Source: a virus
Taxonomy: Duplodnaviria; Heunggongvirae; Uroviricota; Caudoviricetes
Strand: one strand, 5' to 3'
Length of the DNA stretch: 64,000 bases
IMG/VR virus record: IMGVR_UViG_3300036790_000261
Location: 24,725-88,724 of that record
Shown here one piece after another: positions 51,957 through 56,383 of the stretch. A model generated the notes under the pieces. It made no database searches. It saw only the letters and a list, made by a program, of their open reading frames with translations, and was not told the origin of the DNA. The position numbers were made by a program, and so were the translations under genes. Each line of letters begins with the position of its first letter. Position 1 is the stretch's first letter.

Positions 51957-52091
51957 CTAGCGTTCTACCCGCTGGGTACCGCAGCACGGGCACCGGCCTG
52001 ACCCGTCGGTACTACGGCAGGTGCACCCGCAGCACCCGGGCCCGTAGTTGCCGTGCGTGCACCCGCAGTTCTTGCATACGGGATCACTCAC
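51957..52091 (-). CDS. Cys-rich 44-aa peptide
   Basis: GGAGGAAGAG SD + GTG; 12 Cys. Confidence 0.4.
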   Translation of the reverse strand: MSDPVCKNCGCTHGNYGPGCCGCTCRSTDGSGRCPCCGTQRVER

Positions 52092-52107
52092 GCTCTTCCT
52101 CCGGGTT

Positions 52108-52248
52108 TTAGCATTCGAGGTGGCAGTCGTTGCTGTGCATGCCGCAGTGATCGAACCGCTTCGCCCCGCGGGCCTTGCACTCTGCGCAGCCGCACTTGCA
52201 CGACCCCTTATAGGGGCAGCTGCCGTTGCTCCCGCTTATCTCTCTCAC
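52108..52248 (-). CDS. Cys/His-rich 46-aa peptide (paralog of 56249-56383)
   Basis: CAGGAGGAAAAC SD + GTG; GSCKCGCAECK...CH..C. Confidence 0.4.
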   Translation of the reverse strand: MREISGSNGSCPYKGSCKCGCAECKARGAKRFDHCGMHSNDCHLEC

Positions 52249-52303
52249 GTTTTCCTCCTGAAAAGTTGGTGGGCCCCCGCCAATTCCCATGACGGGGGCC
52301 CGA

Positions 52304-52378
52304 TGTCACCGGGGGACTTGAACCCCCAACTTCAGTCTCCAGAGGACTGCGCGCTTCCGATTGCGCCAGGTGTCGGTT
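52304..52378 (-). tRNA. tRNA-like sequence (Gln, anticodon CTG) with imperfect acceptor stem
   Basis: T-arm GGGGGTTCAAGTCCCCC and anticodon arm CAGTC-CTCTGGA-GACTG present; 5' acceptor does not pair well. Confidence 0.3.
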
Positions 52379-52424
52379 GGTGCCCTCATGATCGTTGAGG
52401 GACAGCAGCTCTTGCGAGGGGTAA

Positions 52425-52486
52425 CGCTCTGCCGACTGAGCTAAGGGACCATGCTGGAGGTCCCTCGGGGGGTCGAACCCCGGACC
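52425..52486 (-). ncRNA. tRNA-like fragments in permuted order (3' half with CCA, then 5' half)
   Basis: ...GGTCCGGGGTTCGACCCCCCGAGGGACCTCCA then GCAT then GGTCCCTTAGCTCAGTCGGCAGAGCG; acceptor halves complementary to each other. Confidence 0.3.
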
Positions 52487-52638
52487 TTTACCTTGCACTG
52501 CTGACCTCGCGGGGAGGGCCTCACGGCTAACGGCTCGAAGGACAAGGAGCTTCCGGCTTATCAGCACGGCTCCCGGCTAACGGCATCTGCTAGGTCCTTA
52601 CACCAGTAACACTACCCGACACCGGGCGCAAAGGCAAA

Positions 52639-52698
52639 CCCGGCTCACGAGGCGCTCCGTCAGTGGGCGACGTCTTCACCATGGCCTCGTGAGCCGGG
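52639..52698. terminator. 15-bp-stem hairpin downstream of minus-strand gene
   Basis: CCCGGCTCACGAGGC...GCCTCGTGAGCCGGG. Confidence 0.4.
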
Positions 52699-52706
52699 CC
52701 TGGTTA

Positions 52707-52865
52707 GTCCTCGGTGTCGATGAACAGCGTGCCGGTCTCCTCGTCCCAGGACAGTCCCTGGATGTTCGTCCACCGCCCGGCCACGTTGACCATGACGTGG
52801 GAGAGGGGCCCTGAAGCGTGGCTAACCGCCTGGTCAATCTCCAGCAGCAGCTCGTCGGGACTCAC
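52707..52865 (-). CDS. small hypothetical protein (52 aa)
   Basis: GTGA overlap with upstream gene; good GC3. Confidence 0.3.
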
Positions 52866-53629
52866 GGCGCGGTCAGCCAGCCGAAGATGTCGGCGCCCTC
52901 GTTCAGCGGGGTGACCGTCGCCGAGTTCGCCTCCTCGCGGGCCATCTTCACCGCGGTGCGCAGCTTCGACAGCCGCTCCAGCAGCAGGGCCTTACGCTGG
53001 CGGGGCAGCGCGCCGGAGTAGTTCACCGTGCTGTTGTACTCGACGACCTGGTCGCGGGTCGTGACGTCTACCTGCTCCTGGAACTTGTCGGTACCGTTGC
53101 CGCGGTGCCAGTTGAACATGACCTTTTCCTTCTTGTCACCTTCCTGGGGCACCCTGGAGCGCCACTGTCCGGGCTCGGCGTTCTCGTCGGTCCAGTCCTG
53201 CACCGCGTCCAGCTCGGGGAGCGCGGTGACGAGGGTCTGCAGCTTGGTGAGCTCGCCCTCCAGGTACACCAGGTGCCGCACCGGGACGCCCGTCAGGACC
53301 GTGTCACCGTCGACCACCACGTCGGCCTTCGCGGCGCCCTGCGCGGTGTCCAGCGTCAGCGCGGTGTCCCACTTGCCGGTGAGCAGCTTCGCCGCGTCGT
53401 CCATCGCCTGCACCGCGGTGTAGCGAACCCGGGTGACCTGATCCGGCGTCACCTTACGGCGCGGTCCCTTGTTGTCCTTGTCGGGCTCGTCCGCCAGCCG
53501 GGACTTCTTCTCCATCCCGCTGAACAGTTCCTTGGTACCCAGGATGTGCGTCAGCCGGGCCAGGGACGTCTCCGCGTCGGTGCTCAGCCCGCCGATGATC
53601 GCGAGCAGCTGGTGAACCCTTACCGCCAT
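52862..53629 (-). CDS. hypothetical protein
   Basis: ATG (MAVRVHQLL) with GAGGAGAA SD; earlier in-frame start has no SD. Confidence 0.5.
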   Translation of the reverse strand: MAVRVHQLLAIIGGLSTDAETSLARLTHILGTKELFSGMEKKSRLADEPDKDNKGPRRKVTPDQVTRVRYTAVQAMDDAAKLLTGKWDTALTLDTAQGAAKADVVVDGDTVLTGVPVRHLVYLEGELTKLQTLVTALPELDAVQDWTDENAEPGQWRSRVPQEGDKKEKVMFNWHRGNGTDKFQEQVDVTTRDQVVEYNSTVNYSGALPRQRKALLLERLSKLRTAVKMAREEANSATVTPLNEGADIFGWLTAP

Positions 53630-53643
53630 GTTGTTCTCCTCTG

Positions 53644-54981: not shown

Positions 54982-55048
54982 TCCCGCAAGCCCGGCCCTG
55001 GCTAGCACACTCGTACTCGTACGGCCAGCCAGGGCCGGGCTTGCGGGA
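54982..55048. terminator. perfect 22-bp-stem hairpin
   Basis: TCCCGCAAGCCCGGCCCTGGCT ...23 nt... AGCCAGGGCCGGGCTTGCGGGA. Confidence 0.4.
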
Positions 55049-55192
55049 GACGGCAGGGCCTGAACAGGAAAGTATGGGCCGCCCTGGATCGCCCCGCCGT
55101 CTGGTATCAGTTTACCTGTGTCCTGCTGTGTGTCAAACGCGAACCTGTGATACTCCACTGGGGCGTAGTTTCATTAGGCCTCGTAAGAACCA

Positions 55193-55432
55193 TGTCCCCG
55201 GCGTGTTGTCAATAGTGTTCGCTTGGTTATTAGCCGGGGCGTGATGACGTGTGGTTCGCGCTAGTGCTCTGGCCCCGGCGAGATAAGCTTGGAGCTCGTA
55301 CGTCAAGTGGCCGGGGCGTAGCTATTTTGGGTTACGTCCTACCGCTGGCCCCGGCGTTCTCGATTTGGCGCTCGCCGTAAATGTGGCCGGGGCGTGCCTC
55401 AGTTAGTTCTCGTTCCGTCGATGTCCCCGGCC
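55193..55432. repeat. tandem repeat array B (7 units, same family as array A)
   Basis: Alternating TGTCCCCGGCG / AGCCGGGGCG / TGGCCCCGGCG / TGGCCGGGGCG cores. Confidence 0.7.
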
Positions 55433-55437
55433 GCCTG

Positions 55438-55794
55438 CTAGTCCGTCGGGATGCCGTCGTCGGCCAGGGCCTGCAGCAGCTCCGCGGTGTCCCGCTCGCC
55501 CTTCTCGCCGGCTGCGAGGCGTTTCATGAGCCCGTCGTTGGCGGCGATGAACTTAGCTGCCTGCAGCCGGAACTCCACGTCGGGCAGGCCGCCTTCCTCA
55601 CGCTCGGCCATCACGTCAGCGACCGCCGCGAGCACGTCATCGGGATGCTTCTCCGCCAGCTTCAGCAGCACCAGGTGCAGCACCTCGCCGTCAGCGTTCA
55701 GCAGCAGGCCGCTGAGCAGCAACTTGATCTTCGCCCGGGTGTGCCGGTACGGCATGCCCTTCTCCGGGTCTTCCTGGTTCCACCCTCGTGGCAT
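55438..55794 (-). CDS. hypothetical protein
   Basis: ATG with AAAGGAGA SD. Confidence 0.5.
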   Translation of the reverse strand: MPRGWNQEDPEKGMPYRHTRAKIKLLLSGLLLNADGEVLHLVLLKLAEKHPDDVLAAVADVMAEREEGGLPDVEFRLQAAKFIAANDGLMKRLAAGEKGERDTAELLQALADDGIPTD

Positions 55795-55797
55795 CCG

Positions 55798-55987
55798 GGT
55801 CTCCTTTCAGTAGCGGGTACACAGCGGTCCCGAGTAGCGCGGTCAGGGTAAGTACAGCCAGCAGCGCGGTCCACCAGGACGGGGACAGGGCGCAGGCGAC
55901 CGCGAGCAGCGGGAGGTAGAACACCGGGAACAGGATCAGGAACACGCCGCGGAGGCAGAACGCGAGCACCCGCAGCCTGTCCCGCAC
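55798..55987 (-). CDS. small membrane protein (3' end uncertain)
   Basis: Hydrophobic segments; GC3 drops after downstream gene start. Confidence 0.3.
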
Positions 55988-55997
55988 GCTTTCCCCC

Positions 55998-56126
55998 TTA
56001 CCGGCTGCAGACGGGGCAGGCCGCCGAGATGCACATGAGCCCCCGGCACCCGTACCACCGCTGGTCGTCAGCTGACCACCAGCGGTGCCCTGGATGACAG
56101 GTTTCCTTAGTGCACTGCTGCTGCAT
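55998..56126 (-). CDS. Cys-rich 42-aa peptide
   Basis: MQQQCTKETCHPGH...CISAACPVC. Confidence 0.35.
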   Translation of the reverse strand: MQQQCTKETCHPGHRWWSADDQRWYGCRGLMCISAACPVCSR

Positions 56127-56230
56127 CAGTGCCCCCCGTGGACCGCGTTGACGACTGTGTTCGTGATGACGCAGGCCAGCAGGACCAGCACGGCCACGGT
56201 GAACAGCCATGAGCTTCCGTTAAGCTTCAC
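56126..56230 (-). CDS. 34-aa TM peptide
   Basis: GGGAAGAAGAAAC SD + GTG; WLFTVAVLVLLACVI. Confidence 0.3.
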   Translation of the reverse strand: MKLNGSSWLFTVAVLVLLACVITNTVVNAVHGGH

Positions 56231-56248
56231 GTTTCTTCTTCCCTGTAC

Positions 56249-56383
56249 CTAGCAGCTGTCGTGGCAGTTGGTGTTATGCGTCCCGCAGTGCTTGCCCGCC
56301 CGCTTGTCGCAGCAGTTGCACGTGCACTTACCCCCCAGGGTGCAATGGGCCTTGTCCCCCTCGGGCTTGGACGTTACGCTCAC
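56249..56383 (-). CDS. Cys/His-rich 44-aa peptide
   Basis: GAGGAGGAAG SD + GTG; GKCTCNCCDKRAGKHCGTHNTNCHDSC. Confidence 0.4.
   Translation of the reverse strand: MSVTSKPEGDKAHCTLGGKCTCNCCDKRAGKHCGTHNTNCHDSC

Follow-up and report, generated by a model that had tools for sequence, protein, structure and literature searches.

The window analyzed here is the whole 64,000-nucleotide stretch of IMG/VR virus record IMGVR_UViG_3300036790_000261 from position 24,725 to position 88,724, and its source is an uncultivated high-GC tailed phage. Three short open reading frames (ORFs) of the window, pep1, pep3, and pep5, belong to a family of mini-proteins built on a shared cysteine and histidine pattern, here called the Cys8His3 family. 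The family is under protein-level selection and widespread in soil and viral metagenomes, and it is almost certainly real and conserved. Association with tRNA genes is a general trait of the family. Judged from their sequences, the members likely bind metal, and a composite reading is somewhat favored in which they are Zn-binding cytoplasmic mini-proteins with variable loops that are expressed from tRNA-mRNA co-transcripts. Any specific target that might be named for the family is improbable at best.

The Cys8His3 family

Four short minus-strand ORFs lie exactly where an earlier, sequence-only reading of the window had placed them, and it was right that they look like genuine small genes by GC content at third codon positions (GC3), ribosome-binding sites or coupled start, and packing. 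The pep1 ORF (52108..52248, minus strand; 46 aa, 8 Cys and 3 His; MREISGSNGSCPYKGSCKCGCAECKARGAKRFDHCGMHSNDCHLEC) starts with GTG at 52248 behind the Shine-Dalgarno (SD) sequence AGGAGGAAA at 52259-52251. The pep3 ORF (56249..56383, minus strand; 44 aa, 8 Cys; MSVTSKPEGDKAHCTLGGKCTCNCCDKRAGKHCGTHNTNCHDSC) starts with GTG at 56383 and has the SD GAGGAGGAAGAGG. The other two are pep2 (51957..52091, minus strand; 44 aa, 10 Cys; MSDPVCKNCGCTHGNYGPGCCGCTCRSTDGSGRCPCCGTQRVER), with the SD GGAGGAAG and a GTG at 52091 that lies 16 nt past the pep1 stop, and pep4 (55998..56126, minus strand; 42 aa, 6 Cys; MQQQCTKETCHPGHRWWSADDQRWYGCRGLMCISAACPVCSR), whose ATG at 56126 overlaps the TGA of a 34-aa membrane ORF. 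A GGAGGAA-type SD had been claimed for all four. It precedes the GTG codons of pep1, pep2, and pep3 by 5-7 nt, but pep4 has only a run of G upstream of its coupled ATG. The Cys counts of 8, 10, 8, and 6 span a range of 6-10 and replace the 8-12 given before. GC3 is 0.85 in pep1, 0.80 in pep2, 0.91 in pep3, and 0.81 in pep4, compared to 0.87-0.92 in long genes.

Cysteine content alone proves nothing because Cys-rich ORFs are common by chance in such GC-rich DNA, and 18 of the 394 window ORFs of 30-80 aa contain at least six Cys. Alignment identifies pep1 and pep3 as paralogs (BLASTP E = 4e-6). A DNA pattern of their shared motif has three matches in the window and none in 100 shuffles. The third occurrence is pep5 (46698..46802, plus strand; MTPGRKCSCGCPPCRRGEHLLCPDGHSGGCHVYC...; SD GAGGAGGAAG), an overlooked third paralog that is detected by tblastn, by the motif (match at 46713-46796, plus strand), and by the frame plot. 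The family hidden Markov model (HMM) matches pep1 with E = 1e-10 and pep5 with E = 3e-6. A chance ORF is excluded as the explanation for pep1, pep3, and pep5.

The GTG of pep5 overlaps the TGA of an upstream 45-aa ORF, and its GC3 is 0.90-0.97 across the domain. The frame plot shows the coding signal changing frame near 46810; the pep5 frame is open for 174 codons, to 47222, and the GC3 signal moves to the frame of an ORF at 46804-47169. A lost stop, overlapping genes, and an assembly indel are possible explanations. The last paralog of the array at locus L017 behaves like pep5, with its stop 136 codons later. The phages closest to the window are L001-L008, recovered from Logan assemblies at ~85% nucleotide identity, and more distant relatives are L009-L015 from IMG/VR. 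The 45-aa ORF upstream of pep5 (46561-46698, plus strand; MKKYCRRWTARRAGCRQPKYHPSMCPCISPETRLRAASAPRRKLR) is 80% conserved in L001-L003. It has four Cys and a GTG that overlaps the stop of the gene before it, and it encodes a real small Cys protein outside the Cys8His3 family.

The family signature is C-x3-12-C-x-C-x-C-x0-2-C-x5-15-H-C-x2-[H/C]-x3-C-H-x2-C with 0-5 residues before the stop and a length of 35-55 aa, and the last Cys does usually fall 0-5 residues short of the stop. Both pep1 and pep3 carry the complete signature; pep5 carries it minus the first Cys, the His before the sixth Cys (C6), and the nearby stop. Protein searches, both word-indexed and exhaustive, yielded 16 relatives of 38-74 aa (homolog ids listed as P0001-P0017), a low count that is probably due to gene callers passing over ORFs of this size. 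Wider recovery came from scanning IMG/VR and JGI metagenomes with back-translated motifs and then searching six-frame translations with a local HMM. The IMG/VR scan gave loci with in-frame family members, 37 of 50 metagenome loci yielded 140 HMM hits, and the overall set is ~149 family genes in 45 non-redundant metagenomic or viral loci with a GC content of 0.45-0.71. A related-locus search that started from a two-sequence alignment confirmed zero loci, and the hand-made DNA motif succeeded instead. Among the matches listed from a motif scan of a genome collection, most are noise and one is a true chromosomal member (L211). A tblastn search with pep3 and three other members against phages found nothing significant, which does not imply absence from cultured phages because short queries are weak in 2.3 Gb. 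The pep3 ortholog P0001 was found on 77 Logan contigs, and the pep1 ortholog P0010 (47 aa) keeps the syntenic position behind a DUF7873 gene in JGI sample 3300050821.

An alignment of 42 sequences has six invariant positions and four more that are at least 90% conserved, with a mean column identity of only 24%. The full C-terminal motif is retained in 44 of 50 distinct members. Three of these 50 have Cys in place of the His that lies three residues past C6, and this swap is the behavior expected of a metal ligand. Cys and His together make up 28% of the residues, and the net charge is ~0. The Cys codons track genome GC, with TGC:TGT at 198:14 in loci with a GC content of at least 0.65 and 187:129 in loci at or below 0.46, and the His codons shift likewise (CAC:CAT, 73:11 in high-GC and 54:82 in low-GC loci). 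The preservation of Cys and His while their codons follow genome composition argues for protein-level selection. The 25-codon core of pep3 differs from its L001 ortholog by two synonymous and zero nonsynonymous changes.

No literature or annotation on the family or its tRNA-array habit was found, where literature coverage was incomplete and absence is not proof, and queries on phage metallothioneins, Cys-rich ORFs in tRNA clusters, and DUF7873 returned nothing relevant. The chromosomal member (L211 2629-2754, minus strand; CAVURU010000003.1; MAGTTDNRCSDPGFCGCGCADCRGKLHCWQHSANCHKGCLR) lies on a 3.57-Mb contig of an actinomycete metagenome-assembled genome, ~60 nt upstream of an enoyl-CoA hydratase gene, and its 8-kb flank has neither a tRNA nor obvious prophage genes. 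The family may thus also exist in cells. Locus L009 carries a truncated-looking member at 7130-7335 (MKGRGCNCQCAGCRGVHGVTDHCRVSWLGCNA) after tRNA-Arg. Next to it is a 34-aa CxxC...CPGCG mini-gene with a pep1-like N-terminus (CPYGSPCKCRC) and a relative in L132, and the L009 mini-genes may reflect domain shuffling.

The four minus-strand ORFs had been called clearly paralogous. This holds for pep1 and pep3, and a single family of all four is rejected because pep2 and pep4 match neither of them: pep2 has no similarity to pep3, pep4 gives no alignment with it, and neither ORF carries the Cys8His3 signature. The homolog search that the sequence-only reading proposed as a check found relatives of pep1 and pep3 but none of the other two, with pep2 sought among 5.8 billion proteins and both ORFs sought across all fetched loci. 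The pep2 ORF is not present in L001-L008, and the segment that holds pep4 (56126-55794) has no counterpart in L001. Both are separate orphan small ORFs without comparative support, and they are probably expressed because they have an SD or a coupled start, the GC3 of genes, and tight operon packing. It is an unlikely but not negligible alternative that pep2 and pep4, and only these two, are chance, non-functional open frames of GC-rich DNA in a recently inserted segment. The lack of homologs anywhere looked, the absence from phages as close as ~85% identity, the frequency of ORFs with at least six Cys, and GC3 values at the low end for genes (0.80-0.81) all agree with this explanation. However, the canonical SD of pep2 has ideal spacing and stands directly behind pep1, the stop/start overlap of pep4 and the next SD and GTG 11 nt beyond it are operon-like, and the reading frame of each ORF is its highest-GC3 frame.

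Arrays, tRNA genes, and transcript layout

The family is typically multi-copy and forms head-to-tail arrays of 5-20 divergent copies. Back-to-back, separately terminated copies number eight in L118, eight in L064/L282, ~7 in L132, and five each in L133 and L017. Larger arrays have 8 copies in L290, 10 in L266, 18 in tandem in L309, and 20 in L275. Outside the ligand positions, identity within an array is only 30-45%. The family genes often alternate with tRNA genes or stand immediately downstream of them. The L275 locus packs 34 tRNAs and its 20 family genes into 14.6 kb, with one or two mini-genes separating successive tRNA-Pro genes, and one L064 copy lies between tRNA-Ser and tRNA-Lys.

tRNAs are present in 15 of the 27 non-redundant family loci of at least 3 kb, and 108 are co-oriented with the family genes compared to 1 in the opposite orientation. 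Loci with the out-of-frame pattern served as the control. A tRNA occurs in none of 60 such IMG/VR loci versus three of eight true family loci from the same scan (Fisher's exact p ~0.001, calculated by hand). Within the lineage to which the window belongs, gene positions are also syntenic. A pep3-type gene comes after tRNA-Met in L001, L009, and L131, directly so in L009 and L131, and a pep1-type gene comes after a DUF7873 gene and a tRNA in L132, L133, and the P0010-bearing JGI contig. The placement among tRNAs that had been described as unusual is a real link, but it is general to the family and not a peculiarity of the window.

Within the window, the interleaving with tRNA genes noted earlier is real, and the three tRNAs are co-oriented with the four minus-strand ORFs. 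tRNA-Met (CAT; 56442..56517, minus strand; 55.5 bits) lies 58 nt upstream of pep3, and tRNA-Gln (CTG; 52302..52375, minus strand; 49.4 bits) lies 53 nt upstream of pep1. tRNA-Thr (GGT; 51829..51901, minus strand; 64.8 bits) is 55 nt downstream of the pep2 stop, where it ends the leftward unit and faces a convergent 296-aa gene. The pep5 ORF is not near any tRNA.

The same layout follows tRNA-Gln and tRNA-Met: a hairpin, a short U-rich tract able to pair with the purine-rich SD, and the start codon. L001 and L009 share this layout. A 15-bp GC-rich hairpin (56407..56442, minus strand; -36.0 kcal/mol, z = -4.6) separates tRNA-Met from the pep3 SD, where the U-rich tract pairs with the SD in a small second stem. 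A 12-bp GC-rich hairpin followed by CUUUUC (52271..52301, minus strand; -30.5 kcal/mol, z = -3.3) separates tRNA-Gln from the pep1 SD. Equivalent hairpins are found on the pep3 side in L001 and on the pep1 side in L001 and L009. A simple terminator scan did not call these structures, whose loops and T-runs fall outside its rules, and folding shows them. The gap between hairpin and SD is too short to hold a promoter, so transcription of the small genes would have to begin farther upstream and run through the tRNA. Leaky termination, transcript processing, and 5' stabilization are possible roles of the hairpin.

Small-gene cassettes are swapped between phages of ~85% identity, and the breakpoint is exactly at the start codon, after the conserved hairpin and SD. 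A different 50-aa His/Cys ORF takes the place of pep1 and pep2 (window 52248-51957) in L001 at 13820-13972. A DnaJ-like CxxCxGxG mini-gene stands at the pep5 start codon in the same phage (~18930-18760, minus strand), and pep5 is absent there. The hydrophobic membrane-type ORF of 34 aa between pep3 and pep4 (56126..56230, minus strand) is 62% identical in relatives, in which it lies upstream of the pep3 ortholog. L001 accordingly has this ORF and the pep3 ortholog in reversed order, and pep4 is missing.

The tRNA neighborhood also contains a candidate structured RNA. A sub-threshold match to the Rfam YrlA model (Y RNA-like, tRNA-mimicking) lies at window 52399-52504 (minus strand), and the scores are 31-38 bits across six phages compared to a gathering score of 69. 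The other matches are at L001 13562-13667, L009 6866-6978, L012 7037-7148, L258 (Gordonia phage Fryberger) 5122-5258, and L259 (Arthrobacter phage Mimi) 4948-5079. The match is 130-400 nt downstream of the DUF7873 gene in these six divergent phages, usually by tRNAs, and DUF7873 may be the partner of a Y-like RNA. Published YrlA RNAs adjoin Ro60/TROVE genes (PMC4201824). No TROVE domain was seen among the scanned window ORFs.

Metal binding and possible functions

Scans of the window peptides and 42 family members against Pfam, PHROGs, and NCBIfam gave no meaningful match. Pfam at E <= 1 returned no family, including PF02069, other metallothioneins, zinc ribbons, and zf-HC2, and NCBIfam at E <= 10 returned no SCIFF or other precursor match. 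A PDB sequence search gave nothing significant. A PDB profile search at E <= 10 returned only PHD fingers, the best being BAZ2A/B with a non-significant E = 0.44 over 24 profile positions. AlphaFold2 runs on 8- and 19-sequence alignments reached a predicted local distance difference test (pLDDT) score of 55 and 53 with essentially no secondary structure, and the models are unusable. This low-confidence result is compatible with a metal-dependent fold and proves nothing. The suggestion that the peptides are metallothionein- or zinc-ribbon-like survives in its chemistry, as nothing fits pep1 and pep3 more reasonably than metal binding, but not in any profile match to either class.

One of the closest likenesses is to the SmtA/BmtA metallothioneins (PF02069). 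The SmtA cluster is Zn4Cys9His2 and has 11 ligands. The family shares this ligand total, the small cytoplasmic and Cys-rich character with a few His, a CxC on the N-terminal side, a C/H-rich C-terminus, and the expectation of no fold without metal. It differs in its lack of profile similarity, its CxCxCxxC...HCxxHxxxCHxxC spacing, and its shorter length, and SmtA/BmtA is a single metal-regulated chromosomal gene whereas the family forms phage arrays of divergent paralogs beside tRNA genes. The first six ligand positions of a PHD finger, a cross-brace/treble-clef zinc finger as in BAZ2A/B, are similar to the C-terminal half of the family (CxxC...Cxx[H/C]xxxCHxxC), a likeness that is not statistically significant, but the family is about half the size, has an additional CxCxC block at its N-terminus, and is missing the last CxxC pair. 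The HxxxCxxC of zinc-binding anti-sigma (ZAS; zf-HC2) proteins has a counterpart in the invariant C-terminal H-x3-C-(H)-x2-C, as in HSNDCHLEC and HNTNCHDSC. Membership in that group is rejected because only the bare motif is present, at the extreme C-terminus, with no Pfam match and in a 40-aa protein too short for a helical anti-sigma domain of ~80 aa or more. A zinc ribbon is likewise rejected: there is one CxxC pair only (C4xxC5) where a ribbon has two CxxC knuckles on a three-stranded sheet, no Pfam match, and no sheet in the AlphaFold models, which are of low confidence. A secreted disulfide-rich toxin is rejected because the N-termini of the window copies are, on inspection, short and polar with no signal-like hydrophobic stretch, and His is conserved. 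Tiny genes between or next to phage tRNA genes are known from hyperplastic accessory regions, both in T4/T5-type clusters and in actinophage tRNA arrays. The family genes are similar in being tiny genes within such a region, but here one conserved Cys8His3 family recurs across unrelated lineages with up to 20 copies, and no prior description of this was found.

In the composite reading, each mini-protein would be a ~32-residue cytoplasmic knot that needs metal to fold, with its 11 ligands holding ~2-3 ions of Zn(II) or of another soft metal. Between the ligands, loops of hypervariable sequence would give each paralog a distinct binding surface, and the arrays would be a diversified set of small binders against host or phage macromolecules. 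Diversified binders are preferred to a metal store because only the ligands are conserved and the array copies are strongly divergent. The small genes would be expressed from tRNA-mRNA co-transcripts after tRNA processing, with the post-tRNA hairpin acting as a leaky terminator or a 5' stabilizer.

Several points weigh against this reading. The ligand pairing and the metal number are guesses, given a pLDDT of 53-55. The whole-core ratio of nonsynonymous to synonymous substitution rates (dN/dS) between distant orthologs is 0.2-1.1, which suggests that selective constraint is confined to the ligand positions, and pep5 has no nearby stop codon. Several family loci have no tRNA in the available flank. 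There is none near pep5, near L043/L102, which lie in a structural module, or near L211 on its actinomycete chromosome beside the enoyl-CoA hydratase gene. The tRNA link could merely reflect a shared hyperplastic "moron" region and not co-expression or shared function, and efficient termination at the hairpin and its U-run could silence the ORFs.

A function coupled to the tRNAs themselves is a rather improbable alternative. The mini-proteins might inhibit host tRNA-targeting nucleases or toxins, or might bind or shield either phage tRNAs or the translation machinery, and an arms race would drive their diversification. Such a role is in keeping with the regular mixing of family genes and tRNA arrays in a shared orientation across lineages with a GC content of 0.45-0.69, with the divergent paralogs on a fixed scaffold, and with the RNA-centered island of the window lineage, with its tRNAs and YrlA-like match beside DUF7873. 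However, the net charge of ~0 is atypical for RNA binders and the composition does not suggest nucleic-acid binding, there is no homology to a known inhibitor or tRNA-binding domain, and pep5, L043/L102, and the chromosomal L211 are far from tRNAs. Shared plasticity alone can yield the co-location. A broader and likewise improbable form of this idea would join the mini-proteins, as a phage-specific class of zinc "micro-binders" with very many paralogs, and the phage tRNA arrays in one co-transcribed counter-defense or translation-takeover module. Each paralog might then neutralize its own host nuclease or toxin directed at tRNA, or might chaperone certain phage tRNAs, and the transcripts may be punctuated and released by tRNA processing, by analogy with mitochondrial transcripts.

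Metallothionein-like bulk sequestration or buffering of Zn, Cu, or Cd during infection, with copy number raising capacity, is also unlikely. The Cys and His content, the CxC motifs, the 11 ligands, and the absence of predicted secondary structure would suit a metal store, and the strong SDs suggest high expression. The 42 members nevertheless have no metallothionein Pfam match, and the PDB profile search brought up PHD fingers and nothing else. Exact spacing and C-terminal placement are conserved far more tightly than metallothioneins need, and the 30-45% identity within arrays indicates diversification and not dosage. The metal-buffering role proposed by the sequence-only reading fits these divergent copies poorly.

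Precursors of peptides that ribosomes make and that are modified after translation (RiPPs), of a SCIFF/ranthipeptide- or lanthipeptide-like kind and exported after modification, are an earlier proposal and a highly improbable explanation. The ~45-aa length, the multiple Cys, the divergent tandem copies like those of some RiPP precursor arrays, and the tendency to be missed by gene callers recall SCIFF precursors, but a conserved Cys/His core behind a short variable N-terminus is the reverse of the usual conserved leader and variable core, a conserved leader is lacking, His is conserved and swaps with Cys, there is no SCIFF or other NCBIfam precursor match, the setting is phage and tRNA, and no radical-SAM, Lan, or YcaO maturase occurs in the large ORFs of the window or among the precomputed Pfam labels of related-locus neighbors.

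Genomic setting and significance

The composite reading of Zn-binding, loop-variable mini-proteins concerns a phage whose 64-kb window has a GC content of 64-73%. Its plus strand encodes a head-tail adaptor, an exonuclease, an SNF2 helicase, glycosyltransferases, and very long tail-type ORFs, and leftward genes form a block from ~51.8 kb onward. Megablast of the region against 50,697 phage records gave zero matches, as did tblastn of a 501-aa window ORF against the same records. The host is probably of actinobacterial type because of the GC content and because DUF7873 relatives occur in Gordonia, Arthrobacter, and Rhodococcus phages. Carbohydrate enzymes are unusually numerous for a phage, with three glycosyltransferases, a polysaccharide deacetylase, and a GH16-like protein (window 632-1261, 8596-9825, and 37781-41472, plus strand).

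A 346-aa gene upstream of tRNA-Met (56711-57751, minus strand) matches phrog_5931, of unknown function, and a DGQHR motif (WDGQHRFEAV) of the type usual in ParB/DndB-like domains is visible in it by eye. The ortholog of this gene precedes tRNA-Met and the pep3-type gene in L001, L009, and L131. Two repeat arrays with a 38-nt period, at 53768-53947 and 55155-55430, have units that start alternately with GCCGGGGCGT and GCCCCGGCGT. Both lie inside 1.7 kb of DNA (53700-55438) without a long ORF, which separates the DUF7873 gene from a 118-aa gene.

Phage tRNA arrays are now discussed mainly as codon-usage adaptation or as an escape from tRNA-cleaving host defenses. The Cys8His3 genes add one conserved, tiny family that is repeatedly embedded in such arrays, with up to 20 copies among 34 tRNAs, and that is invisible to gene callers and domain databases. 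Metal-binding mini-proteins rich in Cys and His, as these appear to be, are a known kind; their tRNA-array habit is unexpected. The signature and the HMM permit annotation of family genes, and peptides of ~40 aa are easily synthesized for metal-binding and structural tests. If the members do bind metal and have specific targets, they would represent a new scaffold class of phage effectors and a handle on other roles of tRNA islands.

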